In this document: piece by piece, positions 4,944 to 51,951 of the stretch
Layout of the letters: the number at the start of each line of letters is the position of its first letter
Numbering within the stretch: position 1 is the stretch's first letter
From: Torpedo marmorata
Taxonomy: Eukaryota
Length of the DNA: 64,000 nucleotides
Assembly: GCA_977017645.1 (NCBI GenBank)
Contig: OZ360232.1
Span: 77,562,001 to 77,626,000 of the forward strand
Direction of reading: 5' to 3'
Notes under the pieces: model-generated
The model's input: the letters and a program-made list of their open reading frames with translations, nothing else
What the model was told of the DNA's origin: nothing
Databases searched by the model: none
Program-made: the position numbers and the translations under genes

Positions 4944-5796
4944 CTACAATGAAACATGGAAAGGAATATTTTAACACAAACAGTATTTAAAATTTGGCAT
5001 GGTAAATATCTATTTACAGAACTTGTAAATAATAGAATGCAAGCAATATAATCACAGTATCTTAATTTTTTTTTCAATCAAAATATCGCATGATTTTGTT
5101 TGCTATGTTATCTTTTAATAATTTGATTTGCATTGTTTCAACAATATTTTGGGTTTCAATGTATACTCTTGCCAAAGATTTGTTTCGAACCTTTACTACA
5201 AACTACATGGATGATATACATCTGACTTTTAACATACTCTGGAAATAACCTTATAGTCTTCTCACTTTAATTTCAATAGTGAGTTTGAGGAAACTCATGC
5301 ATTATCTTAAAATGAACGAGTTGAAATATCAATGGAATATGAGTCATTTAAATATAGTAATTGGAAACTCAATTTTCCAGAAGAAGAGGCCAAACACAAG
5401 TAGTAAGATAACCCCAAGTTAAACTAAGAAGTTGGTGTGTTACAACCAGCTTCTGAAATTGCTGGCATATTCACTAAATTTCATAACATAACAAACAACT
5501 TGTACTTCAATACTGAAGTATGCCCCATTGGTTGCATGTCATTTACTGAAAGTTCATGCATAGAAAGAAAAGGTAAATCTTTATGACTATGTCCTTATGG
5601 TTCCTATTATGCACATTTTGGAACAAAAAAGTTAATTTTCCACCCCATGTTGGGGATGAGCAAGAATTAAACAAGTTCAGTTCCATTGTTATCATAATTA
5701 TATTCTAACAGTCTTGATTCATTGCAGTTAAAAGCTGTTTTAACAAAGTGCCACTATACTGTTATCAAAGTTTGTTTTATCAGATTTTAAAGGCAG

Positions 5797-6419
5797 TATA
5801 AGTAACGGTGACTTCGCTCCACCAATAGTCACCTGGAGGCTAAGTGTGGTCCTTGCTTTTGACGCGTTTTATTTTATTTACTGACAAAGTCCAATATGTT
5901 CAGAGATTTTTATTTTCACACATGACTTGCAGTAATCTTCAATGACTTTAATATAAACAGTTCTTGTAAACGATGTATGATAAGTTCCTTTAAATTATTC
6001 TTTAAACAATTCCAAAACGATATGAAAACACTGTAGATGATGTTAAAGTTATAAAAACATTATAACTCGATATAAAACGGTCAATAAAGATGTGGAGACC
6101 AGACTCACCCTCCATACATCTTTTCCTTTCCTGTTCTCTCTCTCTTTAATGGCTCTGCGCATCCTACCCCGCGCATACTACAACTCCCAGCCTCCCACGC
6201 GCACAATGACGTCGCTCCATACTGCGCATGCGCCCGTCGGCACTCCCGCGCATGCGCATATCAAAGAACGGGCTGATAGCGGCCCGCAGACAACGCGAGC
6301 GCTCCGAACGGGCCGAGGACGGCCCAGCAACATCCACAACAATTACGCGGCGCTCCAAGGCCCGACAAGACATCGGAGCGCCGCAACAACGGTAAGTAAA
6401 CGAGCCTACGGCTCTTACA
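5797..6419 (-). repeat. 3' LTR of the BEL/Pao element
   Basis: Direct repeat of 11157-11779; element-sense ends TGTAAG...CTTATA; AATAAA near the U5 end. Confidence 0.95.
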
Positions 6420-6432
6420 CCGGCCCCTAATT
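6420..6432 (-). other. Polypurine tract of the BEL element (AATTAGGGGCCGG)
   Basis: Abuts the TG of the 3' LTR; resembles vertebrate BEL PPTs. Confidence 0.75.
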
Positions 6433-6623
6433 ATTATAATTAGACGTAATGTCTTGAATAATAATTACACTATAAATTATAAATAACAATAACCATAATA
6501 TTCAAAACAATACAAATCTTCTTTCTTCCTTCTTCATAAATCTAGAGTTTACCATAACTCTGATTAAACAAAAGTCTGTAACCTGTGAAATGTACAACAA
6601 CAAATAAAGTCAGTTCACATTTA

Positions 6624-6807
6624 TCAAAGTTCCTCTGTCTCCAACAAAAGGCAGACCTTATTAATAGGTCTGTTTAGAAAAAACCAGTCTTAGGTTTAAT
6701 TCACATTTGACGCACAAGTCCTCTTTGTCTTGAAAAGTCTCAATAATCTTTTCCAAGTAACCAGGAATTTCTTGAAGTTGAACCATCCATAACAATCACA
6801 ATGTCTC
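6624..6807 (-). pseudogene. Frameshifted remnant of the BEL integrase C-terminus (DUF5641-like)
   Basis: Manual translation across frameshifts: DIVIVMDGSTSRNSWLLGK / IIETFQDK / GLVRQ / RPINKVCLLLETEEL*. Confidence 0.8.
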
Positions 6808-6844
6808 TTTAAAGTTCTTTTATCTTCAAATCTGAGTTAAAATG

Positions 6845-9800
6845 TCAATCAGTAAACCTCAAATCTTCTTCAGACAAAATAGATACAGTTTTTCTTTTGA
6901 ATTTAACACAAGGCACTTCTTCAGCACGTCGTTTCACTTTATTCCTTTCTTCAGTGTTCCACTTCTCATGTGAAGAATTTAAACTCTTAGAATTAGAATT
7001 TGAATATTTATCTGATTCTTTCGATTTTAAACAGGTCTGTTTAACCACTCTGGTTTCTATGGCTCTTTCCTGCAATTCTAAATCCAATTTCGCAACTTTC
7101 AATTCAGTCTCAGCTCCTTCCGAGAAATTAATAATTTGATCTGAAGTCAAAATATCATGCGATACATTGATAGTTCCATTGTCAATCCTGTTGCGGCATA
7201 CTTGAAATTTTTTAATTTCTTCGTCTTGCTTGATACATTTCTGCAATGCAATTTCACATTCTTTCTGCATTGTTAATTGTTGAACATTCAATTTACATTC
7301 TTGATTGGTTTTAAAAGTTAACTGTTTTGTGTTATTAACCAATAACTTGATCTCTTTCAAAACATTAATCTCTTCTTCCAACCTTTTACATTTTGATAAT
7401 GCTGAATCTCTTTCCTCAATAACTGTATTCATTTCTTCAACAGTTATTCTTTTCTTCCGCTTTCTGACTTTGCGAGTTTTACTTACAATTAAATCTTTCT
7501 GTTTACTGTTTTCTTGCTTATTTAATATTTCCAATTCTCCTTTCAACATTTTGTTCTCTGAATCATTATTCTTTATTCCATCAGCACAATTTTCTGTGTT
7601 TTCCAGTTTTACATCACATTGTAATATTTCTTCATTAGCTTTGTCAATTGTAATCTCTGAACTACAAAATCTACATTCAGATTTGTTTTCAGTCACTTGT
7701 TTTATTCCTGTATCTGATTCAATTACACATGAATGATCAATAGTATTATTTGCAACATCTTCTAATACTTCACTTTCATTCATTTTTGACGAAATTAATT
7801 TCTTCAATGTTGTTTTAAATACCACTGATTTATTTTCACATTGATCTGTTTTCTTTTCTTCAAAAGTGATTTTCTTATTCACGGTTTTTTGCTCTTCGCT
7901 TAACTCTTCAACTTTCTCAACCGAAATTTTATTAATATTTATCGCTACCTGTTCCTGAGCAATATCATTATTTCTTTCCATTGGTCCATTGATTGCCCAA
8001 CCAAGTATGGTTCTAATAGCGTAAGGTCCATTCCTTTTACTTTCTATTACTTCTTTTGGTACCAAAACCTTTGGCACATCTGAACCAATCAGCATTTCTA
8101 TTTCAGAATTAATTTCAGGTAAATAAACCTTCCACAGATAAGCTAAATGATGGATATCACTTTGATGAGGAATATTTCCTTCGTTCACAGGCATAGTCTT
8201 CTGAGTATATACACTTGGAAGATCACAAAACCTTTTGTCATCTAATCCAGCAACCTCTAAGCCTGAAACAATGTTAGTTTCAACAACCTTTTCTTGTCCC
8301 ATGGTTTTTAACATAATTCTTGATTTTCTTCCTTGAATATTAAGTTTATTCATTAGTCCTTCCGTGCAAAAAGATGCAGTGCTGCCTGGGTCTAGAAATG
8401 CATATGTTTTTACTATTGCATCCCCTTTCTTGGCTTTGACTTGTACAGGCACTATTGAAAGTTTGCAGTTATCCACACCGGCCCCAGTAAGACCACTTGT
8501 CTGAACCGAGGTTATAACATTATTTTCTGTTGTTTCCTTTGTTTCTGTTTGCTCCTTTTCCAATTCCTTGTTTCTGTTATGGATATGCAAAATTCTAGGA
8601 TGTTTCAAATTGCATATGTTACAATTAATTCGCTTCTCGCAGTTTTTACTGATGTGCCCTTTACACAAACAGCTAAAACATATCCCATTTTCCTTTAAGA
8701 AAGCGATCTTTTCCTTATGTTCCTTCTTTTCCAATCGTAAACACATTTCTAAAGTATGTCCACCTTTACAGAACAAACAACTCTTTTTATCAGAACTTTC
8801 CTTTTCCTTATTTATAACTGACACATTAGTAGCAAACGTACTCCTTTTCATTTTCGGGCTATACTGTGTATTAGACTTCCTTACATCTTTGCCCATTGAA
8901 TTATCTCTGGTTTTTCCATATAGTGGATCTGTTTCAACGTACACCCGTCGTTCAAGAAAATTTACTAAATCCTTTAAGGTAGTTTTTCGACCGTAATCTA
9001 CTTGTAAATCACAAGCCAAATCTCTCCATCTATCCCATAACTTGTAAGGTAATTTTTCTAAGATGATTCTCATATTACTATGCACTTCAAGTTCACGAAT
9101 ATTATCAATTTTTTCCATAGCATTACAACATCCTCTTAAAAACAAAGTATATTCTTGCAAAGCCTTTACATCATTTTGTTTTATTGATGTCCATTTAAGA
9201 GCTTTATCCATATAAGCTAAAGCAATTCGATGTTTGTTGCCAAAATATTGTTCCAATAAAGCCTTAGCTTTGTCTAATCCTCTTCCTGAAGACATTTGGT
9301 TACAACTTTTTACCAGTTCTTTTGGATGTCCCTTTGTGAACATTTCCAAATAATAAAGACATTCATCACGATCTTGGCATTTATCTTCAATATTGCGTTT
9401 GAAAGATCTCATAAATGATTGATATTGAAGTGGATCACCATCAAAAGTTTGTATCTCTTTCTTGGGTAAAGAAGAGAGAGACTGTAACTGAAACAATGAT
9501 GCAGCAATTTCATTTTGTCTTTCCTTGGATTTCAATACATTACTCTGTTCACTGTCTCGTGTTGTATGCAATGTATCTGGAAACCTTACTGGTGTAGTTT
9601 CTTCCATATTTCTGATGCTTGGCTCATATAACAAAGAATTTACTTCGTTCGACCGGACCCAAGCCGCAGCTTTGCTTTCAGATGTTACTAATGGTACATG
9701 TGACTCGATACCAATATGCTCGTGAAAGGTTTGTCCTTGTATATGTAAGTTTTGTATCCTTGGTTCTAAAATATCTATCCTTTTGGTTGATTTCTTTTCC

Positions 9801-10711
9801 TGTGACTCCTTTTTTAAATATGACCTTTTATTATTAGACAATTTAGATGATTTACTGCTAGCACCAGATACCATTGAGCCTTCTATTGCTTTCTTTTCTG
9901 CCTTGGCAATAGCAATGTTTGCTTCCAGTTCCTGCTGTTCTTTTCTCTGCTTTAGCTGCTCCTTCTCTTGTCTTAGCTGCTCCTTTAGCTGCTTCTCATT
10001 TTGTCTTAGCTGCTCCTTTAGCTGCTCCTCATTTTGTCTTAGCTGCTCCTCCTCTTGTCTTAGCTGCTCCTTTAGCTGCTCCTTTAGCTGCTCCTCCTTT
10101 CGTCTTAGCTGCTCCTCCTTTTGTCTTAGCTGCTCCTTTAGCTGCTTCTCATTTTGTCTTAGCTGCTCCTTTAGCTGCTCCTCATTTTGTCTTAGCTGCT
10201 CCTCCTCTTGTTCTAATATAAATTTATCCTTAAGCGTTTTTTGTTGTGCAAGAAGAGCGGCCAATTTAACATCAACCTTTGTACGTGACGATGCAGAACT
10301 TGAAGTACGAGAAACTCTGGAGCTTGAACCAGAACTTTTTTTGCTTCTCCTGCTTTCAGCATTTGAGACACTGTCACTTGCTTGTATTTCGTCCTGCAGT
10401 TCACATGTTGTCTTCATACTTACCTCTTTATCCAATTCAAATTGTTCATCATTTGTTGACACAATTTCAGCCATTTCCAAGTTATCTTCTTGTTCAACTA
10501 ATGAAGCTGCTTCTTCTTCCTTTGCCTGCTTCAATCTTTCAATAAGAACCTTTTTATTTCCACTTATGTCCTTATTCAGTCGCTTCAATTCTTCTTTAAT
10601 ATCCGCAACCTTCATGTCTTCAATACGTTGGTCCTCAACAGCAACATCAGCGGTTGCTGCGTCAGCTGCTGATAAATCAGTAGCTGCTGTATCAGTGGCT
10701 GCTGCGGCCAT
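6845..10711 (-). CDS. Chimeric polyprotein: SAP domain - repeat coiled coil - BEL Gag (DUF1759-like, three Zn knuckles) - aspartic protease - MIPOL1-like coiled coil; no RT/RH/IN core
   Basis: Uninterrupted 1309-codon ORF; likely start aaaATGG at 10711 (1288 aa); FDGDPLQYQSF; CLFCKGGHTLEMC, CFSCLCKGHISKNC, CNICNLKHPRILH; AFLDPGSTASF..LIGSD..LGWAINGP; no YxDD motif. Confidence 0.9.
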   Translation of the reverse strand: MAAAATDTAATDLSAADAATADVAVEDQRIEDMKVADIKEELKRLNKDISGNKKVLIERLKQAKEEEAASLVEQEDNLEMAEIVSTNDEQFELDKEVSMKTTCELQDEIQASDSVSNAESRRSKKSSGSSSRVSRTSSSASSRTKVDVKLAALLAQQKTLKDKFILEQEEEQLRQNEEQLKEQLRQNEKQLKEQLRQKEEQLRRKEEQLKEQLKEQLRQEEEQLRQNEEQLKEQLRQNEKQLKEQLRQEKEQLKQRKEQQELEANIAIAKAEKKAIEGSMVSGASSKSSKLSNNKRSYLKKESQEKKSTKRIDILEPRIQNLHIQGQTFHEHIGIESHVPLVTSESKAAAWVRSNEVNSLLYEPSIRNMEETTPVRFPDTLHTTRDSEQSNVLKSKERQNEIAASLFQLQSLSSLPKKEIQTFDGDPLQYQSFMRSFKRNIEDKCQDRDECLYYLEMFTKGHPKELVKSCNQMSSGRGLDKAKALLEQYFGNKHRIALAYMDKALKWTSIKQNDVKALQEYTLFLRGCCNAMEKIDNIRELEVHSNMRIILEKLPYKLWDRWRDLACDLQVDYGRKTTLKDLVNFLERRVYVETDPLYGKTRDNSMGKDVRKSNTQYSPKMKRSTFATNVSVINKEKESSDKKSCLFCKGGHTLEMCLRLEKKEHKEKIAFLKENGICFSCLCKGHISKNCEKRINCNICNLKHPRILHIHNRNKELEKEQTETKETTENNVITSVQTSGLTGAGVDNCKLSIVPVQVKAKKGDAIVKTYAFLDPGSTASFCTEGLMNKLNIQGRKSRIMLKTMGQEKVVETNIVSGLEVAGLDDKRFCDLPSVYTQKTMPVNEGNIPHQSDIHHLAYLWKVYLPEINSEIEMLIGSDVPKVLVPKEVIESKRNGPYAIRTILGWAINGPMERNNDIAQEQVAININKISVEKVEELSEEQKTVNKKITFEEKKTDQCENKSVVFKTTLKKLISSKMNESEVLEDVANNTIDHSCVIESDTGIKQVTENKSECRFCSSEITIDKANEEILQCDVKLENTENCADGIKNNDSENKMLKGELEILNKQENSKQKDLIVSKTRKVRKRKKRITVEEMNTVIEERDSALSKCKRLEEEINVLKEIKLLVNNTKQLTFKTNQECKLNVQQLTMQKECEIALQKCIKQDEEIKKFQVCRNRIDNGTINVSHDILTSDQIINFSEGAETELKVAKLDLELQERAIETRVVKQTCLKSKESDKYSNSNSKSLNSSHEKWNTEERNKVKRRAEEVPCVKFKRKTVSILSEEDLRFTD
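9950..10210 (-). repeat. Coding minisatellite of 12/21-bp units (EQLK / EQLRQxE)
   Basis: Repeated ttagctgctcc units; frame preserved throughout. Confidence 0.9.
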
Positions 10712-11156
10712 TTTACTCGTCTTGTTCCTCTTTCCTTCAAGCATACACAACACTAGCCAAACAACAGTCCCCAATGGACCAGCGGCAGCAATTCCAATCT
10801 GTGTTCTTACTTGTTAAAGATACACAGAAGGAGTCCACAGACTTATGCCTACCACTTCAAATGACTGTAATGTGCTGCAATCCACAAACGAGTTTCAACC
10901 ACAACATCCGTCACTAATATCACTGATTTTCCAAAAAATAGTTTTTCCAACGTATTTATAGGACACTTTACTATAAGATTTGAAGCTTTAAATCCCTCTC
11001 TGGCTGTTATTCATGGCAGATGGAAGTGGATTACAAACTGCCCCCAACTCGAGGCATCTCCAAAATGGCCACCAATTTATATCAGTCCAAAGCACAGAGA
11101 GTTTTCTATCTTCTTTCCTTCAAACTTCTGTTCCAAACAGCCAGCCCTTTATTGAC

Positions 11157-11779
11157 TATAAGTAACGGTGACTTCGCTCCACCAATAGTCACCTGGAGGC
11201 TAAGTGTGGTCCTTGCTTTTGACGCGTTTTATTTTATTTACTGACAAAGTCCAATATGTTCAGAGATTTTTATTTTCACACATGACTTGCAGTAATCTTC
11301 AATGACTTTAATATAAACAGTTCTTGTAAACGATGTATGATAAGTTCCTTTAAATTATTCTTTAAACAATTCCAAAACGATATGAAAACACTGTAGATGA
11401 TGTTAAAGTTATAAAAACATTATAACTCGATATAAAACGGTCAATAAAGATGTGGAGACCAGACTCACCCTCCATACATCTTTTCCTTTCCTGTTCTCTC
11501 TCTCTTTAATGGCTCTGCGCATCCTACCCCGCGCATACTACAACTCCCAGCCTCCCACGCGCACAATGACGTCGCTCCATACTGCGCATGCGCCCGTCGG
11601 CACTCCCGCGCATGCGCATATCAAAGAACGGGCTGATAGCGGCCCGCAGACAACGCGAGCGCTCCGAACGGGCCGAGGACGGCCCAGCAACATCCACAAC
11701 AATTACGCGGCGCTCCAAGGCCCGACAAGACATCGGAGCGCCGCAACAACGGTAAGTAAACGAGCCTACGGCTCTTACA
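11157..11779 (-). repeat. 5' LTR of the BEL/Pao element
   Basis: Direct repeat of 5797-6419; CpG-rich U3. Confidence 0.95.
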
Positions 11780-12178
11780 GGCAGTTAAAGTGATTCTTCA
11801 CTGTTCAAAAAAATTAATTGTGAAAGAACAATGCAATTTCTAATCATATCCAGATATTCAGCATATTTTTCAGTTGTCTTTAAATTCATCTGAAAAAAGT
11901 GAGGTGTTAAGGAATCACTGTGGTGTAATCACAACAGCATTTGAAGGGTGAATTCATAGAGGTCACTTTAATGAACTGGAGTTGAGCAAAGTTAAGCAAC
12001 TTCAACAAAGAACAAAGAACAAAATACTCAAAGGATGGGCAAGTATATCAATGCCACCTTGATAATCAAGTTCAAGTTCAAATTAATTGTCAGAGTACAT
12101 ACATAACATCACATAGAACCTTGAGGTTCTTTTTCCTGCAGGCAGGTGGAGAATTATCAGCTATGCAAATGATGTCAA

Positions 12179-20722: not shown

Positions 20723-23700
20723 TGTGAGCTACACAGAATTCTGAAGAACAACACACAGTCGGTGGGTTGCAAGCAAGACTGTTTAATCGGGTCTCGCAAC
20801 CCTGGCTTTTAAGCAGGGCTGCGAGCTTAATTGCTGTCGTTTACATGACCATTGCCGCTTAATCGCTGTCGTCTACATGACAATGGGAGCTGTACATTAC
20901 AATGGGAACTTTCCCGGGTCTCCTGTCCTTCTTCTCCTGGTTGAAGTAGTTGGGGGGGGGGGGGTTGGTGCCATCTTTGCGCCGGCCCCTGCTGTTGCCA
21001 GGTGTACTTGCGCGACCTTTATAGTGGTGCCCTGTGTGGTCCCCTTCTGACGAACACATACTCACAGCTCCGCAGGTTGTTGGGGATGCGCGCGGGCCGC
21101 TGTCCGTGTTGCGACGTGGGGATCGGTGCTGGGTTGCCGAGTTGCTCGCGGAGTCTGTTGAGCACCTCTGCTGTGCTGGCATCTTGCCTCCTTGGGGTTG
21201 GTAGGAATTCCCCTGGTACCACCAGGGGGGTTCCGTAGACCAATTCTGCCGACGAGGTATTGAGGTCTTCTTTAGGCGCTGTGCGGATCCCCAGGAGGAC
21301 CCACGGCAACTCGTCCACCCAATTCGGACCGTCTAGGCGGGCCATTAGAGCGGCTTTTAGGTGGCGGTGGAAGCGTTCCACTAAACCATTGGATTGTGGA
21401 TGGTAAGCCGTCGTTTTGTGGAGCTGTGTGCCCAGCAAGTTGGCCATGGCTGTCCACAGGGCTAATGTAAATTGGGCCCCCCTGTCCGAGGTAATGTGGG
21501 CTGGCACCCCAAAGCGTGCGACCCACGTGGTGATAAGGGCTCTTGCACAGGCTTCGGTGGTGATGTTCGCGAGAGGGACTGCCTCGGGCCAGCGAGTGAA
21601 ACGGTCCACCATGGTGAGGAGACGGGTAGGGGGCCTACCAGGTCTACGTGCATGTGGTCAAATCGCCTGGTCGTTGGCTCAAATTTTGTGGCTGGGTCTT
21701 TGTGTGGTTTTGGACTTTTGAGGTCTGGCACTGCACGCAGTTCTTGGCCCATTCGGTGACTTTCTTGCGGAGACCGTGCCAGACGAATTTACTTGAAATC
21801 AGCTTAGCGGTAGTTCTGATGAACGGGTGGGATAAGCCGTGAATGGAATCGAAAACCTGCCTCTGCCACGCCGTTGGGACAATGGGTCGGGGTGGCCTGT
21901 GGAGACGTCACATAGGAGAGTTTGCTCACCTGTCCCGATGGCGATGTCCTGGTTCTGAAACATTGCATCTCTTCATCAGCCTGCTGCGCCTCTGCCAGGG
22001 CGGTGTAGTCGATCCCTTGGGCTAAGGCTTGGATAGTTGGCCGGGATAGTGCGTCAGCTACAGCGTTGTCCTTTCCTGAGACATGCTGAATCTGTGTCGT
22101 GAACTCAGATATGTAGGACAAGTGGCGCTGTTAGCGGGCCGACCAGGGGTCGGAGACTTTCGAAAACGCGAAAGTGAGCGGCTTGTGGTCAGTGAAGGCG
22201 GTGAATGTTCTACCTTCCAGAAAGTATCGAAAGTGCCGTATGGCCAGGTACAGTGCTAGTAGCTCCCGGTCGAAGGTGCTGTATTTAAGTTCGGGTGGCT
22301 GTGAATGTCTACTGAAAAAGGCCAAGGGTTTCCAGCTGCCTTCACTAAACTGCTCCAGTACCCCGCCGACTGCCGTGTTTGAAGCGTCCACCGTGAGGGA
22401 GGTTGGCACGTCGGTTCTGGGGTGAACCAGCATCAGCCAGGGCCTCTTTGTTAAAAGCCGCAGTGGATTCCGCATCCCAAACCAGCGCTTTGGCTTTGCG
22501 GGTGAAAAGCGGACGCATGATGCGGGCTGCTGCTGGCAGGAATCTGTGATAAAAATTGACCATCCCCACAAACTCCTGGAGGCCCTTGACGGTGGATGCC
22601 CGGGGGAATTTGGAGAACTGCGTCCACTTTGTCGGGTAGGGAAGTTGCGCCATGGCGTGTGATCATATGGCCCAGGAAGTCAATTGTGGAGAGACCGAAC
22701 TGGCATTTGGCCAGGTTGACTGTAAGGCCAAATTGGTTTAGGCGGTTGAACAGCTGGCGGAGGTGTGCTATGTGCTCCTGGCGGGTTTTACTGGCGATAA
22801 GTATATCATCCAAGTAAATGAAAAGGAAGTCCAAATCCCGCCCTACCGCATCCATTAAGCGTTGGAAGGTTTGGGCCGCGTTCTTTAGCCCGAATAGCAT
22901 GCAGAGGAATTCAAACAGGCCAAAAGGGGTTATGATGGCTGTTTTGGGCACATCCTCTGGTAGCACGGGGATTTGGTGATAACCTCGGATGCGGTCGACC
23001 TTTGAGAATATAGTCGCCCTGTGCAGGTTGGCGGCGAAGTCCTGAATGTGGGGAACAGGGTAGCGGTCGGGAGTGGTGGCTTCATTAAGCCTGCGGTAGT
23101 CACCGCATGGCCTCCACCTACCGGATGCTTTGGGCACCACGTGCAGTGGGCTTGCCCAGGGACTATCGGAGCGTCTGATTATCCCTAAGGTCTCCATCCT
23201 GCTAAACTCCTCTTTGGCTAGTCGGAGTTTATCCGGGGGCAAGCGGCGTGCGCGGGCGTGGAGCGGTGGGCCCTGGGTGGTGATGTGGTGCCTGACACCG
23301 TGCTTGGGCATCTCTGCCGTGAACTTGGGGTCGGAAATTGACGGGAAATCAGCGAGCAAGTGGGTGAAATCGTCCTCTGGCTGCGCTACGGAGCTCAGCT
23401 GGGTGGAGTGGTGATTGGATTTTTGCAGGGCAAAGGATTGGAAGGTCCGTGCATGGACCAGCCGGTTACCCTGCAGGTCTGCCAGTAAGCTGTGTGCCCT
23501 GAGGAAGTCGGCCTAGGATGGGCATCCAGACGCTTGCGAGCGTGAACTCCCACGAGAAATGGCTGTCGCCGAACCGGAGGTATGCCGTCCTTGGGCCGAA
23601 CGTTGGAATGGTGCTGCCGTTGGCGGCCCGCAGCGCGTGTCCCTGTGACCGGGTCCTGGTTTTGTACGGTGTCGGGGGAATAATGCTGATTTTGGCTCCT

Positions 23701-24827
23701 GTGTCCATGAGGAACTGCCGTCCAGAATTCTTGTCCCTGACGTAAAGTAGGCTGTCTCTGTGGCCAGCCGTCGTAGCCACTAGAGACGGCTGGCCATATC
23801 GTTTCCCGGGCTTGCAGAGGGACCTGCACCAGTGGGCCTTCGGGCCCCAACGACGGTGGTAGAAACACCAATCGAGGCTGGCGTCGTCGCTGCTGCTACC
23901 GTGGGCTGTGCGTTTGGTGGGACGATCAGGGTTGGGGTGTTGGGTTTTTGGTTTGACCACTTGGTCGACCATTGTCTGATTCACCCTTCCTGCTTCCCAG
24001 AGAGTGTCCGCTCGAGTTGCCACCGTCCTGGGCATGGAGAAATCTGCCTCTGCAAGTGCCAGGTGCATGCTGAGTGGCATTATCTCTAAGAAAACCTGCT
24101 CGAAGAAAAGGCACGGTGGCCTCCTGTGAGGGCCAGCATCTCGTCCATGAGCTGTGAGGGCGATCTGTCTCCCAGCCCGTCCAGCCGCAGCAAGCGGGCA
24201 CCCTGCTCCCGTCGCGAAAGCCCGAAAGTGTTCATCAACAGGGCTTTGAAAGCGGGGTATTTACCCTCCTCCGGTGGTCGGTGCAGGAAATCTTCCACCC
24301 GTGCGACTGCGTCCTCTCTGAGTGAGCTGACCACATGGTAGTACTTGGTGGCATCTCCGATGATGCTGCAGAGTGCAAATTGTGCTTTTGCCTGATCGAA
24401 CCACACATGGGGTCGGTGGGTCCAGAAGGTCGGTAGCTTGACGGCGACTGCGCTGATGGCCGTGGAGTCGGTCATTGTAGGTCCAAATTCATTTGGACTT
24501 GTCGGGGTCACCAATGTAGCGTGAGCTACACAGAATTCTGAAGAACAACACACAGTCGGTGGGTTGCAAGCAAGACTTTAATTGGGTCTTGCAGCCCTGG
24601 CTCTTAAGCAGGGATGCAAGCTTAATAGCTGTCATTTACATGACCATTGCTGCTTAATCGCTGTCGTCTACAGGACAATGGGAGCTGTACATTACAATGG
24701 GAACTTTCCCGGGTCTCCTGTCCTTCTTCTCCTGGTTGAAGTAGGGGGATCGGTGCCATCTTTGCGCCGGCCCCTGCTGTTCCCACATGTACTTGCGCGG
24801 CCGCCATTGCGGGCATCGGTTCACTTG
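20718..24827 (-). mobile_element. Gypsy LTR retrotransposon, CsRn1/Kabuki-like clade, decayed
   Basis: Gag VKLPTFW..WF and CHCC motif CFYHRRWGPKAHWCRSLC; protease LMDTGA; RT YLDD; RNase H DAS; IN SDRGAQF; LTRs 20718-~21005 (truncated by deletion into IN) and 24515-gap; multiple frameshifts. Confidence 0.92.
24501..24513 (-). other. Primer-binding site complementary to tRNA-Trp (TGGTGACCCCGAC)
   Basis: 1 nt after the 5' LTR end (..GCTACA). Confidence 0.85.
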
Positions 24828-33908: not shown

Positions 33909-36900
33909 TGTGGTGGAACGCGGTACTGAGGGTATGTCCGGGCATGTCCAGACATGTCCTCACTGGCTCACCGGGCTAACATGTAGCCCCTCCCCATTAC
34001 ATCCCCTAATAACGGCTGAGAGCACTTGTCTCCTCCCCTATACCTGCCTTGGAAGTGAGCCAGCAGCATGTAGAGGCATGCTCGAACTTTCTGATCAATA
34101 AAGCCTTTGATCACTTTCTTCGTGACTGTGAGTGGTCATTGATCGCGCTACAATTTATTAATCAGAATTTTAAATGCCATGGAGAAGGCAATTAGACTGG
34201 AGAAGCTGGACACAGACCCCAAGGAACCAGAGGCTTCCGTAAAGTTCGATATGTGGCTACACTGCTTGAACGCCTATCTGAGGCGCCACAATATCACAAC
34301 CAACCCGGATAAGTACGATATGCTCTTCGCAGCGGTGGGTCACAGAGCGTACCAAATTATCCGAGACTGCACCGAATATGAAGAGGCAATGGCTCTACTT
34401 TGACAACAATACGGAGACCCAGCGATCGCCATGTATACACGCTTCCAGCTGGGCTCCCGACGCCAGGGTCCTGGTGAGTCAGTAGACGAGTTCGTGAGGG
34501 CTATGCGGGAGCTGGGACAAGCCTGCAGGTGCCGGGACGTGAGCGCGGCGCTCTACCAAGAGGAGCTCATCCGCGATGGGCTCGTCGCGAGCTTCCGCTC
34601 CCAACACATAAGGGAGCGACTCTTGGAGGAAGGAGATCAGTCCCTCCAAGTAGTGGTGCAGATGGCCCGAGCGATGGAGACGGCCCAAAAGAACGCGGAG
34701 GCCTACTCAGCGGGCCACGCGGCCACCAGGTGGGGAGAACGGGCGGCGCCATCTTGGGCTTGGGGCCCCTGACTGCAGCGACCACCGCCGACCACGCGAG
34801 GTGCAACTACTGCGGCCAAAGTAGACACCCACGGAAGTACTGTCCGGCCCGTAGCGCAACCTGCTCAAACTGCCAGAGGAAGGGACATTATGCCAGGGTT
34901 TGTCGCTCCAAGCCCCACTCCAGCAGTGCAGCGTGCGGACCGCGACTCTCCTCGCCATCTTGGACCCACCCACTACCGCCGTCATTTCCGGCTGCCGAAA
35001 ACCGAGCTTCTGGAACAGGGGCGCAACAAAGAGGACTGACGTCACTTCCTGCTTCTTCTCCAGATTCGGCCGCGTGTGATCCATGGGGGCGGCCATCTTC
35101 ACTACCCCCTGGGCGGCCATCTTGGCGGCAGCCACCCCGAAACAGCAGCAGCGACTCGGACAGTGAGCTGACGCTGGCGTCCATTGTGCTGGACCAAGGG
35201 AGACCACACCAGCTGGGGCGATCGATGATGGACGTTGAGGTAAACGGTCACTCCACTGGCTGCCTGTTCGACACAGGAAGCACTGAGAGCTTCATACACC
35301 CGGGCACTGCCGAGCGTTATTCCTTGACCATGTCCCCAGCCAAGGGAAAGGTAGCACTAGCCTCCAAATCCCTTACCACGGAAATCCGCGGAAGCTGCAC
35401 CGTGACCCTAACTGTGGGGGGCACCAATTATAAGAATTTTAAACTGCTGGTAATGCCCCACCTCTGCGCACCCGTCATATTGGGGCTAGATTTCCAGTGC
35501 CAGTTCAAAGAGGTGCTGATGCAGTTTGACGGGCCCCACCCCCCGTCACTAATAACCAGTACCGGGAGGCCCCGCCCATTCCCCAGAGGAGGCCCAATCA
35601 CACGATTGAAAGCCGGGCTGGGTACCCGACCTGCGGACTAACCACCCTCCGGGTCCCTCCGCCCCCGCTGTTCCAAAACCTCACCCCGGACTGTAAACCC
35701 ATTGCAGGCGAAACAGCCCCGTGGACAGAAAATTCATTGAAACGGAAGTGGAGTGGCTGCGGGAGGAGGGCATTATAGAGTGGGGAGAGACATCGGATGG
35801 TAATTGACTACAGTCAGACCATCAACCGGTTCACCTTACTGGACGCCTACCCTTTGCCCCGCATATCGGAGATGGTAAATGAGATCGCCAAGTACAGGGT
35901 CTTTTCGACCATAGACCTAAAAGCGGCGTACCACCAGATCCCGATTCGCCCAAAAGACTGGTTGTACACAGCATTTGAGGCCAACGGCCGACTCTACCAT
36001 TTCCTGCGGGTCCCATTTGGTCTCACGAATGGGGTGTCAGTGTTCCAAAGGGAAATGGACCACATGGTGGATGACAATAAGCTGAAGGCTTCGTTTCCAT
36101 ACTTGGACAATGTCACCATCTGCGGCCATGACCAAAAGGAGCACGACGAGAACCTGCAGAGGTTCCTGGCCACCGCAAAGACACTCAACCTCACGTATAA
36201 TGAGAAAAAGTGTGTCTTTAGCACCAAAAGGCTGGCAATCCTGGGGTACGTGGTGGAGCATGGGGCTATCGCCCCTGACCCCGAGCGTATGCGCCCCCTA
36301 CTGGAATTACCTTTACCACAGAACCCCAAGGCTTTAAAAAGGTGCCTGGGGCTCTTCTCCTATTATGCCCAGTGGATCCCTAACTATGCGGACAAGGCCC
36401 AACCTCTAGTGAGAACCACGACTTTTCCCCCGTGGGCGGAGGCCCGTAAGGTTTTCGAGGGCATCAGAGGCGAGATTGCCAAGGCGGGAATGCACGCCAT
36501 TGATGAATCTGTCTCTTTCCAAGTGGAAAGTGATGCCTTTGACTTCGCCCTGGCCGCCACGCTGAACCAAGCGGGCAGGCCAGTCGGATTTTTTTCCCGT
36601 ACCCTCCAAGGCCCCGAACGCAGGCACTCCACCATCGAGAAGGAGGCACAGGCTATAGTGGAGGCAGTGCGTCACTGGAGGCACTACTTGGCCGGCAGAC
36701 CATTCACCCTGCTGACGGACCAGAGAGCCGTCGCTTTCACGCTTTCATAAACAGCGGGGTAAGATCAAAAATGACAAAATCATGAGGTGGGGAATTGAGC
36801 TGTCCACTTACAATTATGAAATATGGTACTGGCCAGGTAAGCTCAATGAGCCACCCGATGCCCTGTCCAGGGGAACCTGCACCAGGGTGCAAGTTGATCG

Positions 36901-39327: not shown

Positions 39328-42300
39328 TTTTTTTTTTTTTTAAATATTTTATTTAAATTTTAAATCACACATTACATAAAATAACTTGCATATAATTCTT
39401 AAAAAATACATGTGATTACATTTTCTCCCCCCCTCATCCCACCCTCCCCTCCCTAGCCCCTATACCCCCCTAATCTAATTTTAAAAAAAAATATATATAA
39501 AATAATAATAGTAAAGATAAAAGAAAAAGTAGAGATATAAAGATAGAACGAGGAGTCAATAAGCTTAAAAAAAAAAAAAAAACACTAATATATCTTAGAG
39601 GTTGTTTCGCCGGTAGGTCTAATATCCAGAGAATTCACAATGTTAAACCCATAATCCTCGTATATGGGCCCCAAATTTTTAAAAAAGAATGATATTTATT
39701 TCGTAAATTATAGGTAATTTTTTCCAATGGTATACATGACCGTAACTCTGCATGCCATCGTTCTAAATTTAAATCAACATCCGATTTCCAAGTAATAGCT
39801 ATACATTTTTTTGAAATTGCTAATATTATACGTAAAAATTCTACTTGATACATATTCAATTTATGTCTAATACTAAATTTTTTAATGTCTCCAAATAAAA
39901 ATAACATAGGATCCATTGCAATTTTAACATTAAAAACTCTTTCTAAAAAATTCTTAACTTTCAACCAAAATTCTTGAATCTTTGAACATGACCATGTACA
40001 ATGTACAAAAGATCCTATTTCAGTTTTACATCTGAAACACGTATCTGATAACGCTGGGTTAAATTTCTTCAATTTTCTAGGTGTCAAATACAATTGATGA
40101 AAAAAATTATATTGTACTAATCTATATCTCACATTAATAACTTTTGTCATACTTAGTTTACATAAATCTTTCCAATGTTTTTCATCTATATTAACATTCA
40201 AATCAGACTCCCATTTCAATCTAGACTTATGCTCTCCTACCTTAGACATTTTTCTTTGAAACAACTTGTACATCTGTGATATAAATTTATTAACATTAAC
40301 TTTAGTAATTAATAACTCCAATTCACTTTGTCTTAATACTGTTAATTCATTCCCTAATCTTTCAATCAAAAAAGCTCTAACTTGAAAATAAACTAACATT
40401 GTATTATCTAATATATTAAATTTTTCCTTTAACCTCTGAAAGGTAACAAATTTACCTGCTTCAAAACAATCTTTTAATGTCTTAACTCCCTTTAAAAACC
40501 ATAATTTAAGTAATTGATTATCCATAGAAAATGGTAAAAGTGGATTTTGGTATATTGGTGTATTTAAAGAAATTAATCCTTTTTGACCTATCTCCTTATC
40601 TACTTGCGACCAAATTTCCAACAAATGTTTAATAATTGGTGTTTTTTTCTTTTTAAGTAATAATAATTTAGGGTTCCATTTATAAATAATATCTTCTTTA
40701 TGTATTTCTCCCATATTATTCAATTCTATATTAATCCAAGCAGAAGTTTTATCCAAATCAAAAAATTCATTAATAAATTTTAACTGAGCTACTTTATAAT
40801 AATGTTGAAAATTAGGAAGTTGTAATCCTCCCATTTCATAATTCCATGTTAATTTATCTATACTTACTCTTGCTAACTTTCCTTTCCATAGAAATTTCCT
40901 AACAATAAATTTTAAATCTTTAAAAAATTTATTTGGAATACCATAAGGAATCGATTGAAAAAGATATTGAATTCTTGGAAAAACATTCATTTTAATACAA
41001 TTTACTCTTCCCATCAACGTTATCGGTAAGTCTTTCCAAAGCTCTAAATCTTTTTTTATTTTAGTAAATAAAGGTATATAATTTAATTTATACAAATTTT
41101 CCAAATTTGTATCTACTTTAACTCCCAAATATTTAATACTCTCTGTAGTCCACTTAAAGTCTGTAACTTCTTTACATCTAGTATAATCCCCTTGCGATAA
41201 AGCCAAAATCTCACTTTTATCTGAATTAATCTTGTATCCTGATATCTCACCATATTCTGTCAATATAATAGCCAATTGTTGAAGTGACGTAACAGATTTT
41301 GTCATATATATTAATACATCATCTGCAAACAAACTAATCTTGTGCTCTTCCCTACCCACCTTTATTCCCATTATATTTATATCTTCTCTAATCATTTCTG
41401 CTAAAGGTTCTATTACCAACACAAACAAAGCAGGAGATAAAGGACATCCCTGTCGTGTTGATCTTGATAACAAAAACTTTTGCGATATCTGTCCATTTGT
41501 AACTACTTTAGCCGTAGGTTCCTTATATATAGTTTTAATCCAATTTATAAAGTTATCTCCAAATCCAAATTTTTCCAAAACCTTAAATAAAAAATTCCAC
41601 TCTACTCTATCAAATGCCTTTTCTGCATCCAATGTTACCACCAGTGGCAGATCTTGTTTCTTCTTATATACATTAATTAAGCTTAACAATCTAGCTATAT
41701 TATCTTTCGAATATCTATTTTTAATAAATCCGGCTTGATCCGAATGTATTAAATGTGGTAGACATTTAGCTAATCTATTTGCTAAAATTTTCGCCATTAT
41801 CTTATAATCTACATTTAACAGTGAAATAGGCCTATAAGACTCTGTTTTTAATACATCTCTATCCTTCTTTGGTATAACCGTAATAATAGCATTTAAAAAT
41901 GTCTTCGGTAACAAATGAGTTTCCATAACTTGATTCAATACCTCCATATACAAAGGTATCAATAAATCTTTAAATTCTTTATAAAATTCTACTGGAAATC
42001 CATCATCACCTGGAGATTTACCACTTCTCAACGTCGATATTGCTTCAGTAACTTCTCTCATCGTAAAAGGTAAATCCAAAGAATATTTACTTTGAACAGT
42101 CAATTTAGGTAAAGTAATTTTAGATAAAAATCTATTTATCTTCGTTTCATCTTGATCTGTCTCAGATCTATATAAATTCTGATAATATTCTTTAAAAGAT
42201 TCATTTATTTCTTGTGGCTTATATGTTATTACCCCTGTATTTCTCTTCCTTATAGCATTAATTGTTTTTGAAACTTGCTCTTTTTTCAATTGCCATGATA

Positions 42301-43075
42301 ACACCTTGTGTGCCTTTTCCCCTAATTCATAATATCTTTGTTTTGTTCTTACTATTAATTTTTCAGTCTTACGCGTTTGCAATAAATTATAATGTAATTT
42401 CTTCCTTACTAAACGGTTCCTCTTAAGAATAGACCGGTTTCTCTGTGAATCTTTTTCCATAATTTCAATCTCCTTCTCTAATTTTTCTTCTTCTCTCAAA
42501 TAGTCTTTTTTTATCTTTGCTGAAAAACTTATTGTTAAACCTCTTAAATAAGCTTTCAAAGCTTCCCATACCATAAATTTATCATCTACCGAATTATTAT
42601 TTACTCTTAAAAATTCCTGAATTTCTCGTCTCATATATTCACAGAAATCCTTCCTTTTCAATAATAAAGAATCAAATCTCCAGTTATAAATAGTCTTTTC
42701 TTTCTCTGGAATTATACACGTCATTAATAAAGGTGAATGATCCGAAATTATTCTTGCTTTATAAGATATCTGTGTTACTCTTTCCTGAAGTTGTGAAGAC
42801 AATAAAAATAAATCTATCCTTGAAAAAGAATTATGTCTAAATGAGTAGAATGAATAATCCTTCTCCCTAGGCTTTAATTTTCTCCAAATATCCACCAAAT
42901 TTAAATCCTCCATCAAATTAACTATCTTCTTCACTATTTTTGGTCTAACAACTGTTTTGGAAGTTTTATCCATTATTGCATTTAAACAACAATTGAAATC
43001 ACCACCAACTAAAATGTTATCTTTGGCATCTGATAAATGTAAAAAAGCATCTTGAATAAACTGTTCATCATCTGG
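39328..43075 (-). mobile_element. Young 5'-truncated L1
   Basis: polyA tail, 17-bp TSD aagggtagagtcatatc (39311-39327 / 43076-43092). Confidence 0.95.
39635..42973 (-). CDS. L1 ORF2 (partial APE endonuclease, RT, Cys-rich C-terminus), open frame
   Basis: SRIDLF..SDH; YRPISLLNVDYK; LDAEKAFDRV; RQGCPLSP; FADD; CFRC..HCTWSC. Confidence 0.93.
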   Translation of the reverse strand: MDKTSKTVVRPKIVKKIVNLMEDLNLVDIWRKLKPREKDYSFYSFRHNSFSRIDLFLLSSQLQERVTQISYKARIISDHSPLLMTCIIPEKEKTIYNWRFDSLLLKRKDFCEYMRREIQEFLRVNNNSVDDKFMVWEALKAYLRGLTISFSAKIKKDYLREEEKLEKEIEIMEKDSQRNRSILKRNRLVRKKLHYNLLQTRKTEKLIVRTKQRYYELGEKAHKVLSWQLKKEQVSKTINAIRKRNTGVITYKPQEINESFKEYYQNLYRSETDQDETKINRFLSKITLPKLTVQSKYSLDLPFTMREVTEAISTLRSGKSPGDDGFPVEFYKEFKDLLIPLYMEVLNQVMETHLLPKTFLNAIITVIPKKDRDVLKTESYRPISLLNVDYKIMAKILANRLAKCLPHLIHSDQAGFIKNRYSKDNIARLLSLINVYKKKQDLPLVVTLDAEKAFDRVEWNFLFKVLEKFGFGDNFINWIKTIYKEPTAKVVTNGQISQKFLLSRSTRQGCPLSPALFVLVIEPLAEMIREDINIMGIKVGREEHKISLFADDVLIYMTKSVTSLQQLAIILTEYGEISGYKINSDKSEILALSQGDYTRCKEVTDFKWTTESIKYLGVKVDTNLENLYKLNYIPLFTKIKKDLELWKDLPITLMGRVNCIKMNVFPRIQYLFQSIPYGIPNKFFKDLKFIVRKFLWKGKLARVSIDKLTWNYEMGGLQLPNFQHYYKVAQLKFINEFFDLDKTSAWINIELNNMGEIHKEDIIYKWNPKLLLLKKKKTPIIKHLLEIWSQVDKEIGQKGLISLNTPIYQNPLLPFSMDNQLLKLWFLKGVKTLKDCFEAGKFVTFQRLKEKFNILDNTMLVYFQVRAFLIERLGNELTVLRQSELELLITKVNVNKFISQMYKLFQRKMSKVGEHKSRLKWESDLNVNIDEKHWKDLCKLSMTKVINVRYRLVQYNFFHQLYLTPRKLKKFNPALSDTCFRCKTEIGSFVHCTWSCSKIQEFWLKVKNFLERVFNVKIAMDPMLFLFGDIKKFSIRHKLNMYQVEFLRIILAISKKCIAITWKSDVDLNLERWHAELRSCIPLEKITYNLRNKYHSFLKIWGPYTRIMGLTL

Positions 43076-43324
43076 AAGGGTAGAGTCATATCGATGGTAA
43101 AAAAAAACAGTTCTTGAACCTCGAGGTGCTGGTTTTATATTCTTAAATAGATTCTGCCTTTTCTATATTCTTTGCACGGTTTATTTTCTCCATCCTTTAA
43201 GTCACCCTTTCCTGGTTTCTAAAACATTCCCAATCTTGCCACCATATAATGACATTTTCTTTCAATGTCATGTATTTCTCAACTTTTTTTAGATAGTCAC
43301 TAATGGATCATCCTACTCACGGAC

Positions 43325-43967
43325 ATTGACGAAAGACCACAGTCTATCTGGGTTGGCAGCAAAACCTCAAGCCCATCACATTGAGCACTGGCACACCTCA
43401 GGGCTGTGTGCTCAGCCCACTACTGTTCACACTGCTGACTCACGACTGCACTGCCAGAATCACTTCTAACAGAATCACCAAATTTGCAGATGATACAACA
43501 GGAGTTTATATGTTCTCCCCGTGTCTGCATGGGTTTTCTACGGGGGCTCCGGTTTCCTCCCACCCTTCAAAAACGTACCGGGGTGTAGGTTAATGGGGTG
43601 TAATTTGGGCAGCACGGACTCGTAGGGCCGAATTGGCCTGTTACAGTGCTGTATGTCTAATTTAAAATTTAAATTTAAATTTCATTGGCCTCATAAGCAA
43701 CAATGATGAATCACATTACAGAGAGGATTGAAAGTATTGTAAAATGGTTCGACAACAAAACCCGAGTCTCAACGTGGGCAAGACAAAGGAGATGATTGTG
43801 GACTTATAGAGAATTCCACTACACATTAACGGTTCCATTATGGAGAGCACAAATTTCCTCGGCGTGTATATAAAGGATGACTTATCCTGGACTCACAACA
43901 CCTCGTTAGTCAGGAAGGTGCAGCAGCACCTACCCAAGGAGGCTGAGGAAGGCAAGGCCCCCATCTT
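43325..43967 (+). mobile_element. Rex1/Babar LINE fragment (continues at 51967-52260), host of the nested L1s; contains a 5'-truncated V-SINE at ~43501-43682
   Basis: [21 protein letters not shown]; resumes TFHRSTIESVLTSCI after the L1. Confidence 0.8.
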
Positions 43968-49900: not shown

Positions 49901-51951
49901 TAAGTCAATCCTCGAGAATGAATTATGTCGAAAGGAATAAAATGAATAATCTTTTTCTCTAGGGTTTAACTTTCTCCAAATATCTACTAAATTTAAATCC
50001 TCCATTAAATTAATAATTCTTTTAACTATTTTAGGTCTAACAGATGTTCTAGATGTTTTATCCATATTTGCATTAAGACAACAATTGAAATCTCCCCCAA
50101 TTAAAATATTTTCCTTAGCTTCAGATAAATGTAAAAAAGTATCTTGAATAAATTGTTCATCCTCTGGGTTTGTAATATATAAATTTAAAAAGGTCCATGT
50201 TTCTGAATAAATTTGACAATGCACCATAACAAATCTACCAGCTATTTGTCAAAATTTTTGCCTTTAATTTATAATCTACATTCAATAATGATATAGGTCT
50301 GTATGACTCAGTTTTTAATACATCTCTATCTTTCTTTGGTATAACTGTGATAATAGCATTCAAAAAAGTTTTCGGTAATAAATGAGTTTCCTTAATTTGA
50401 GTCAATACTTCCATATATATAGGTATCAATAAATCTTTAAACTCCTTATAAAACTCTATCGGAAATCCATCATCACCAGGAGATTTACCACTTTTCAATG
50501 TCGATAAAGCTTCAACTACTTCTCTCATTGTAATAGGTAAATCTAACATATCTCTATTAAAATTATTTAATTTAGGTAATGTAATTTTGGATAAAAATCT
50601 ATTAATTTTTGTATCATCATGATCAATCTGAGAGGTATATAAATTCTGATAATATTCTCTGAAAGATTCATTTATTTCCTGAGGTTTATAAGTTATTTCA
50701 CCAGTACTTTTTTTTATAGCATTAAAAGTTTTAGAAACTTGTTCTTTTTTTAATTGCCATGCTAGAACTTTATGTGCTCTTTCTCCTAATTCATAATATC
50801 TTTGTTTCGTTCTACCAATTAATTTTTCTATTTTTCGAGTTTGTAACATATTATAATGCAATTTTTTCCTAATTAAACGTTGTCTCCTAAAAATTGTTTT
50901 ATTTCTTTGAAAATCTTTCTCCATAAATTCAATCTCCCTTTCCAATTTTCCTTCTTCTTTCAAATAATCTTTTCTAATTTTTGCCGAAAAACTTATTATC
51001 AAACCTCTTAAATAAGCTTTTAAAGATTCCCAAATTATAAATTTATCATTAACCGAATTATTATTAATTCTTAAAAATTCCTGAATTTCTTTTCTTATAT
51101 ATTCACAAAAGTCTTTTCTATTTAATAAAGAAGAATCTAATCTCCAATTATATACAGTTTTTTCTTTCTCTGGAATTATACACGTCATCAATAAAGGTGA
51201 ATGATCTGAAATTATTCTTGCTTTATAAGATATTTGAGTTACTCTATCCTGAATTTGTGAAGATATCAAAACAAATCAATCCTAGAAAATGAGCTATGTC
51301 TAAAAGAATAAAATGAATAATCTTTTTCTCTAGGGTTTAATTTCCTCCAGATATCTACCAGATTCAAATCTTCCATTAAATTAATAATTCTTTTGACTAT
51401 TTTAGGTCTAGCAAGTGTTCTGGTAGTTCTATCCATGTTCGCATTTAAACAACAATTAAAATCTCCACCAATTAAAATATTTTCCTTAGCCTCAGATAAA
51501 TGTAAAAAAGCATCTTGAATAGACTGTTCGTCATCCGGATTTGTAACATATAAATTTTAAAAAAGTCCATATTTCTGAATAAATTTAACAATGTATTAAA
51601 ACATATCTACCAGCTACATCAGTCACTACTGATTGTATTTTAAATGGTAATTTTTTATTAACTAAAATCGCTACACCTCTCGCTTTAGAATTAAAAGATG
51701 AAGCTACTACATGTCCCACCCATTCTCTTTTTAACTTTTGATGTTCCTTATCAATCAAATGTGTTTCTTGTAAAAAAGCTATATCTACTTTCAATTTCTT
51801 AATATATGCCAAAGTTTTTTTCCTCTTAATTGGATTATTAAGCCCATTAACATTAATACTTACAAAATTTATACTTCTAGAATCCACCATAAATAAACTT
51901 TAGACATTCTCTATCTGTTAGATCCGCTAGCATTTCCCTCCTAATCTGTTA
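43968..51951 (-). mobile_element. L1 with complete but frameshifted ORF2 (start 51890), split by a nested L1
   Basis: 15-bp TSD caaggcccccatctt (43953-43967 / 51952-51966); NVNGLN..LQETH; ORF pieces 51585-51890, 50235-51269, 44513-46429, 44261-44482. Confidence 0.93.
46430..50241 (-). mobile_element. Nested 5'-truncated L1 of the same family
   Basis: Own A-tail and 3'UTR; 11-bp TSD ctatttgtcaa (46419-46429 / 50242-50252); ORF2 in three pieces. Confidence 0.92.

Follow-up and report, generated by a model that had tools for sequence, protein, structure and literature searches.

A back-spliced MIPOL1 piece, likely copied from a circular RNA, in the open host-derived tail of a high-copy non-autonomous BEL/Pao family

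Several described systems show retroelements taking up host RNA. Dong et al. (2016, PMC4897178) defined pseudogenes derived from circular RNA (circRNA) by their reversed exon-exon joint and reported 33 mouse circRFWD2 copies near LTR sequence; the sections of that paper on this topic leave it open by which route circRNAs are retrotransposed. Tan et al. (2016, PMC5131818) described LTR-mediated retroposition in animals, including a four-gene chimera in the mouse and one BEL case in a mosquito, and the word 'circular' is absent from the main text of that paper. Maize Bs1 is an LTR element that combines three host-gene pieces in one hybrid ORF; according to the relevant parts of the two sources, it is present in 1-5 copies and has been interpreted as a new host gene (PMC13317346, PMC5131818). 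The wheat pair RLG_Quinta and RLG_Cereba joins a long-lived, Gag-keeping non-autonomous element to an autonomous partner that mobilises it, as summarised in the abstract (PMC11302176).

In this study, we analysed a stretch of 64,000 nucleotides, here called the window, and the family of the LTR element that it contains. The results showed that this BEL/Pao element is very young, both of its LTRs being identical. Its direct-repeat LTRs (a 623-bp pair) and short target-site duplication (5 bp) are those of a BEL/Pao element. The LTRs end in TG...TA in the window copy, in a second young copy (H210) and in a full-length relative (L089); in BEL/Pao elements, LTRs typically end in TG...CA and a primer-binding site for a tRNA is also typical. 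An initial annotation of this DNA had placed a MIPOL1-like peptide at about 7190-7500, in the minus-strand frame 6845-10813, where reverse transcriptase (RT) should be. This was borne out: the peptide stands in RT's place, downstream of SAP, Gag-like and protease-like parts. The aspartyl protease was matched by Pfam Asp_protease_2 at residues 802-857 with an E-value of 0.075, below the cut-off, and Pfam found no RT, RNase H or integrase in the window frame. In the pol region, 1081 bases stand in for about 3190, and the window copy, which lacks its own RT, RNase H and integrase, is non-autonomous. The Gag part holds a coding tandem repeat of 21/33-bp units (an EQL/RQ-rich coiled coil, window 9950-10244), whose length differs among copies and likely explains much of the 1240-1370 aa range of the open frames. 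Elsewhere in the window, a 12-kb AT-rich run at 39635-51275 contains several LINE ORF2 copies, arranged head to tail in minus-strand orientation and putatively L1/Tx1-like from a reading of their translation; in one of them, a frame of 1175 aa is open. Fragments of two putative Gypsy-like LTR elements, labelled in the same way, lie at 22451-24260 and 34478-36750.

Table 1. Parts of the BEL/Pao element in the window, from its 5' to its 3' side (MIPOL1 exons are lettered as in the text)
Feature	Position	Strand	Basis
Target-site duplication, 5 bp, 5' side of element	11780-11784	.	Sequence comparison
5' LTR, 623 bp, TG...TA ends	11157-11779	-	100% identical to 3' LTR over 623 bases
One open frame: SAP, Gag, Zn knuckles, protease, host-derived tail	6845-10813	-	1322 aa, stop-to-stop
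SAP domain	10523-10624	-	Pfam PF02037, E 6.4e-9, residues 64-97
BEL/Pao Gag-protease and first PR-RT linker codons	7889-10813	-	94.2% DNA identity to L089, up to element position 3891
Captured BRCA1 piece, two host exons, intron-free, BRCA1 frame	7489-7891	-	78.7% DNA identity, 133 codons
MIPOL1 exon g, 3' part	7391-7492	-	Host exon alignment
MIPOL1 exon h	7286-7390	-	Host exon alignment
MIPOL1 exon i, complete	7191-7285	-	Host exon alignment
Back-splice joint between exon i (its end) and upstream exon c (its start)	7190-7191	-	Gap-free alignment in window copy
MIPOL1 exon c, 5' part	7115-7190	-	Host exon alignment
MIPOL1 exon d	7037-7114	-	Host exon alignment
Captured Elongin A piece, Elongin A frame until stop at 6845-6847	6833-7046	-	80.3% DNA identity, 61 codons
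Integrase C-terminus remnant (untranslated), 3' untranslated stretch and purine-rich tract	6420-6807	-	Matches 3' end of L089
3' LTR, 623 bp	5797-6419	-	Identical to 5' LTR
Target-site duplication, 5 bp, 3' side of element	5792-5796	.	Sequence comparison

We mapped 370 kb of the host mipol1 gene (contig C40:64285001-64655000), lettered its exons b to j, and compared them with the tail. The MIPOL1 match was significant in BLASTP with composition adjustment (79 of 156 residues identical, E 1e-29), and a second, out-of-order block (query residues 283-311 = MIPOL1 262-290) followed downstream of residues 313-466. As had been claimed, the segment is still in frame though diverged: it lies open within the long frame, and its DNA is 79.7% identical to the host exons over 516 aligned bases. 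It also crosses the g|h and h|i joints without introns. On the upstream side of MIPOL1, an older copy carries sequence of BRCA1, with matches in rays, skates and a shark (6 matches among 398 candidates, best E 3e-49); between the large BRCA1 exon of this genome and its Narcine counterpart, identity is 84%, which suggests that the host is a ray. In older copies, four BRCA1 exons (88-100% identity) follow one another colinearly, and the window copy retains two of them. Downstream of MIPOL1, the older copies gave a Pfam Elongin_A match, and the Elongin A piece had 136 matches in the genome. This piece comprises five colinear exons of a locus on contig C41, of which two pieces (78% and 84% identity) remain in the window. 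Two intron-containing Elongin A loci exist in the genome (C41:39013234 and C25:175336908), and the paralogue on C25 was rejected as donor because the captured piece matches only the C41 locus. The three pieces are each read in their own host frame. As in LTR retrocopies, intronless partial host mRNA replaces the internal ORFs, here with four exons of BRCA1, six of MIPOL1 (in part or whole) and five of Elongin A. The initial annotation had overlooked both flanks of the MIPOL1 piece, and also that the element belongs to a family which numbers roughly ten thousand copies or more and has a full-length partner.

We then examined the capture joints. The pol|BRCA1 joint shows an imperfect shared stretch of about 10 nt and the BRCA1|MIPOL1 joint one of 2 nt, both as read from the alignment. 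At the MIPOL1|Elongin A joint, about 14 bases had no match in the host exon stretch examined, and a shared stretch at the Elongin A|pol joint is likely from the alignment. The locus resembles the cases of Tan et al. (PMC5131818), as described there, in having partial host RNA in place of internal ORFs, multi-gene chimeras and further copying rounds; those cases show short shared stretches at their switch points, and here imperfect, short or likely ones occur at three of four joints. Four older copies (L118, L073, L076 and L086) keep more pol and a 34-base piece of deeper RT just before BRCA1; therefore, an internal jump within pol came before or with the capture. The second of the captured Elongin A exons is absent, almost to the base, from two others (L069 and L081), and in the young family 111 bases are missing over the same exon; either deletion or re-splicing could account for this. 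An 81-base in-frame deletion in young copies takes out the MIPOL1 c|d joint.

To count the family, we searched the genome for exact markers; such counts are lower bounds, each covering one sequence variant. A 15-mer across the young i|c joint had 9,671 matches (control 3), and a host-identical 16-mer across the same joint had 319 (control 0), from older copies. An 18-mer of the protease had 8,741 matches (control 0), and an RT 18-mer of the full-length relative had 170 (control 0). Roughly, then, the family occupies ten thousand places or more. Within the first 32.6 Mb of contig C1, the exact young joint was present in 26 of 100 protease-marked copies; if protease-marked copies have the tail, the family would total about 37,000 copies, a rough estimate corresponding to some 3-4% of the 6.2-Gb genome. 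Five joint matches lie 4,964 bases apart at C1:1498506-1518376, and this even spacing suggests a tandem array of the element. In unselected stretches, 4 tail copies were found in 770 kb, too few to give a density; all 4 were in mipol1 introns and none in the other 400 kb. The presence of these four tail-carrying elements inside introns of the host gene is probably due to chance.

We next fetched 20 older copies from the best MIPOL1-like matches, a choice biased to the least changed. The results showed that 15 of the 20 shared their breakpoints exactly (82-668 in the permuted string of exons), with 3 more within 4 bases, 1 truncated and 1 rearranged. Their MIPOL1 stretch (g'-h-i-c-d-e', g and e being partial) was 90-96%, about 95%, identical to the host exons, and LTR-like repeat pairs in 11 of the 20 were 81-93% alike (66% in one). 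Across the series of copies, identity to the host exons was about 95%, 91%, 83-84% and 80%, the last being the window copy. Because the breakpoints are shared and the identity to the host is graded, the alignments fit a single capture event followed by a long replicating lineage. The shared breakpoints and the thousands of joint matches are also those of secondary retroposition with common switch points. Contigs (not recorded as RNA) from sequencing runs of organisms coded A, B, C and F covered 30, 30, 28 and 30 of 30 element bins, respectively, and single contigs from B and F spanned the i|c joint of an older copy; one further run gave no contig covering the element. In a set of 5.8 billion proteins, none of 2664 candidates was a full-length protein (727-2314 aa) with the tail, a result of little weight because gene calling is usually preceded by repeat masking.

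To place the family, we compared it with the full-length relative L089, the only one of the best 150 protease matches with a frame above 2000 aa. It encodes a 2083-aa Gag-PR-RT-RH-IN polyprotein and contains no MIPOL1 sequence; on both sides of the tail, it is 94% identical to the window element. Pfam found PF05380, PF18701 and PF17921 above the cut-off and PF03564, RVT_1 and rve below it, in that order, and L089 thus has the single Gag-PR-RT-RH-IN ORF with Pao-type families of a BEL/Pao element. The 3' region of the window element is 93.6% identical to the L089 3' end (from element position 4973), and the LTRs of the two are 92.6-93.8% identical. We then built a tree of the Gag-end/protease region with 18 rows, excluding mid_H55 as too short. 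L089 nested within the young tail-carrying clade with a support of 100/100. Over this region, the window copy was 98.6% identical to L089, and the older tail-carrying copies were 76-79% identical. Since the tail was captured once, long ago, yet L089 nests in the young clade, Gag-protease sequence has been exchanged between the tail-carrying and the full-length lineages; the tree would allow either direction of transfer.

We then assessed how far the tail has been kept. Compared with the host over 346 aligned codons, it carries 219 changes and 0 stops, whereas shuffling gave a mean of 12.1 stops and no stop-free result in 5000 shuffles; the probabilities of 0 stops for the individual host pieces were 0.006, 0.001 and 0.19. 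In the pairwise alignments, all 10 internal indels before the stop had a length divisible by 3, and the next indel, the first beyond the stop, measured 11 nt. Across 46 copies of the MIPOL1 piece, the frame was kept by 2/2 shared and 2/8 private indels. The corresponding counts for the BRCA1 piece were 8/21 and 12/48; this cross-copy count is noisy because the alignment overruns the homology end in young copies, and the pairwise count was used instead. The tail is therefore not a pseudogene: its frame is undecayed. In the data of Tan et al. (PMC5131818), 14 of 21 older retrocopies had decayed in some way, whereas here the tail is open after about 20% divergence. Constraint on the residues was weaker. 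Amino-acid changes numbered 131 against 142.8 expected with stops barred (P = 0.017), and when codons were limited to those in which the host equals one older copy, P was 0.02-0.18 over six copies. The same test in the element's own coding parts gave 61 against 82 for the protease and 136 against 163 for Gag, about two to three times the constraint on the tail. A Nei-Gojobori dN/dS of 0.56 for the tail was set aside as a constraint measure in favour of the trimmed shuffle tests; its alignments passed the true borders, and silent change of the host lineage was included. Thus, the frame is strongly kept and the residues weakly. The open frame is selected and, because stops and frameshifts are absent while amino-acid constraint is weak, MIPOL1 function is probably not what is selected.

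The tail may alternatively be a working module, in which the MIPOL1 coiled coil and basic patches would equip Gag-protease with a new activity in oligomerisation, in targeting or as a host decoy. This reading bears on the frame keeping alone and is compatible with a circular origin. The strict frame and the small, mostly significant amino-acid constraint speak for it, as do a single-sequence fold with long helices at tail residues 151-237 and 250-295 and the retention of MIPOL1 g-h-i while about half of the tail was lost stepwise. However, amino-acid identity to the host is similar in the three unrelated pieces (60%, 61% and 69%), the disordered BRCA1 stretch included; G>A and C>T account for 103 of the 219 changes; and large in-frame deletions are tolerated. 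The fold as a whole was of low quality (mean pLDDT 55, pTM 0.23) and confident only in the long helices of the MIPOL1 part, and a host-like helical sequence folds as a helix whether used or unused. We consider such an activity unlikely. The abundance of tail joints over RT markers (9,671 vs 170) would fit the further proposal that the activity explains the larger number of tail-carrying copies relative to the full-length partner, which we find equally doubtful.

We prefer to view the open tail as, likely, translated filler. A long untranslated 3' stretch is a known trigger of RNA decay. Because a stop after the protease would leave such a stretch, translation to near the 3' end may spare the RNA from premature-stop decay and may keep its packaging length, a reason that we favour with about even confidence. 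Two findings count against this view. The small amino-acid constraint is not predicted by pure filler, and the stop codon still lies 426 bases ahead of the 3' LTR compared with 199 in L089, which argues against the degradation reading.

To identify the template of the MIPOL1 piece, we examined the exon order in the host gene and in the element. The host gene is single (its first large exon gave one genome match, and so did its last exons), and exons c-i each occur once in the 370 kb, all with AG/GT edges. A genome search with MIPOL1 of the sawfish yielded 130 matches, mostly paired, which covered residues of about 340-470 and then directly 210-300. The element copies contain the 3' part of g, then h, i, c and d, followed by 18 bases of e. 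Here the donor of exon i meets, to the exact base, the acceptor of exon c, an exon situated 206 kb upstream of exon i in the host gene. In an older copy (L022), 40 of 40 bases around this joint match the host exon ends, and the joint is gap-free in 9 of 9 older loci, one of which has a deletion 16 bases further along. Exon c has a tandem acceptor with two AG three bases apart (C40:64591881-64591883), and the capture used the upstream AG. Exons c-i total 780 nt and are stop-free in the host frame going round the circle, so that the i|c joint preserves the frame. No MIPOL1 exon from outside the c-i circle was present in the element copies, and there is no poly(A) at the capture end, where the sequence runs directly into other sequence. 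The near-colinear match reported at first is real and ends at the back-splice joint 7191|7190; the proposed intronless capture of a spliced host mRNA segment is supported as a spliced capture in an LTR element, likely by template switching, and fails for an ordinary linear segment. A plain linear MIPOL1 mRNA template does not account for the sequence past 7190, where an exact splice joint leads back to exons c and d, which lie upstream.

Because the MIPOL1 exons run in wrap-around order, they were likely copied from a circular RNA. The non-colinear exact splice joint, the lack of outside exons and the lack of poly(A) are among the features of high-confidence circRNA retrosequences after Dong et al. 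(2016, PMC4897178); a further one is that the parent circle is seen in RNA of the species. For the mouse, a circ-Mipol1 is reported in the relevant passages of PMC9888537 without exon detail, and 'circMIPOL1' had no match in the literature searched. As in the circRFWD2 pseudogenes described in PMC4897178, there are a reversed exon-exon joint, no poly(A), an association with LTRs and several copies. Unlike those pseudogenes as presented there, the joint here is part of an open frame, and the element around it is complete, with two LTRs, a target-site duplication and readable capture joints; instead of 33 copies there are at least 9,671, young members included (PMC4897178).

A linear RNA could also have supplied the i-to-c joint, through exon repetition by trans-splicing or through an ancestral, since-lost tandem duplication of exons c-i. 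The captured stretch covers 587 of 780 nt. This is less than a full turn and leaves no rolling-circle repeat to be seen, and this length counts against the circle inasmuch as a linear RNA with repeated exons could also give it. The flanking BRCA1 and Elongin A captures are colinear, consistent with linear mRNA, and the relevant section of Dong et al. (PMC4897178) notes other routes to some non-colinear joints. Against this, the present host gene holds each exon once, sawfish MIPOL1 protein has no such repeat, and both breakpoints lie inside the circle with outside exons absent. Moreover, non-colinear exon joints commonly arise by back-splicing. We therefore judge a linear template improbable.

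Scrambling after capture of a linear MIPOL1 mRNA, by template switching or duplication-deletion within the element that met exon borders by chance, is far less credible still. Internal duplications of the MIPOL1 piece do exist (L088) and the exon ends have AG in common, a 2-base microhomology; however, both sides are base-exact at splice sites, a rough hand estimate for two random breakpoints falling at splice joints of a 1.7-kb CDS is about 3 in 10,000, and no colinear intermediate was found among the 130 genome matches. Compositional noise among coiled coils can be dismissed, even though the MIPOL1 segment by itself gave no Pfam family above the cut-off and K, E and N are abundant in the tail, because its DNA is 79.7% identical to the exons of a single host gene (about 95% in older copies) and because tail residues 140-300 searched against 5.8 billion proteins gave 3 matches among 287 candidates, all named MIPOL1, the best in the sawfish Pristis pectinata (E 1.2e-25, 55% identity) and two in catfish (E about 3e-7).

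Taken together, we consider it quite probable that the family is a non-autonomous BEL/Pao lineage in which RT, RNase H and integrase were replaced by BRCA1, back-spliced MIPOL1 (likely from a 780-nt circle) and Elongin A, likely through template switching, and which is likely mobilised in trans with its tail serving as translated filler. An ancestral BEL/Pao particle would have co-packaged host RNAs, and RT would have jumped from pol to BRCA1 mRNA, the MIPOL1 circle, Elongin A RNA and the integrase end in one or several rounds. The product would have retained the LTRs, Gag and protease and been copied by the enzymes of the full-length partner, while cleavage by the protease at the former PR-RT site would release the tail. 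A bolder version, in which a frame-preserving host circRNA was packaged by a BEL/Pao particle and the back-splice peptide, absent from the linear protein, became a working retroelement module that aided a parasite of a parasite to tens of thousands of copies during Gag-protease swapping with its partner, seems to us rather unlikely.

The separate ingredients are thus known from Tan et al. (2016), maize Bs1 and Dong et al. (2016), and we did not find their combination and scale in print. Like Bs1 as described (PMC13317346, PMC5131818), the present element is an LTR element with three host-gene pieces in one hybrid ORF; unlike Bs1, it forms a spreading non-autonomous BEL/Pao family whose copies number about ten thousand or more, and one of its pieces is back-spliced. 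It shares with RLG_Quinta and RLG_Cereba the long-lived, Gag-keeping non-autonomous state, but RLG_Quinta belongs to another superfamily and the abstract mentions no captured host coding tail (PMC11302176). No description of this element was found in the literature searched, repeat libraries such as Repbase and Dfam and subscription journals being outside its scope, and a term search in the text of a shark-and-ray genome-size preprint (10.1101/2025.06.08.657570) gave no mention of MIPOL1. New here is a back-spliced host RNA that has become fixed in frame, as one part of a chimeric tail from three genes, in a non-autonomous BEL/Pao family of high copy number and recent amplification.

Because this likely circRNA product sits in an intact LTR element with readable capture joints, it points to template switching in an LTR particle. 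The element copies would date a germline MIPOL1 circle in a cartilaginous fish, and through the dated copy series it can be studied, as in a natural experiment, why foreign sequence stays in frame in a non-autonomous element. Both the annotation of genes and the calling of circRNAs in these species will be confused by the thousands of fragments that resemble BRCA1, MIPOL1 and Elongin A, and the family may make up a sizeable share of a very large genome.
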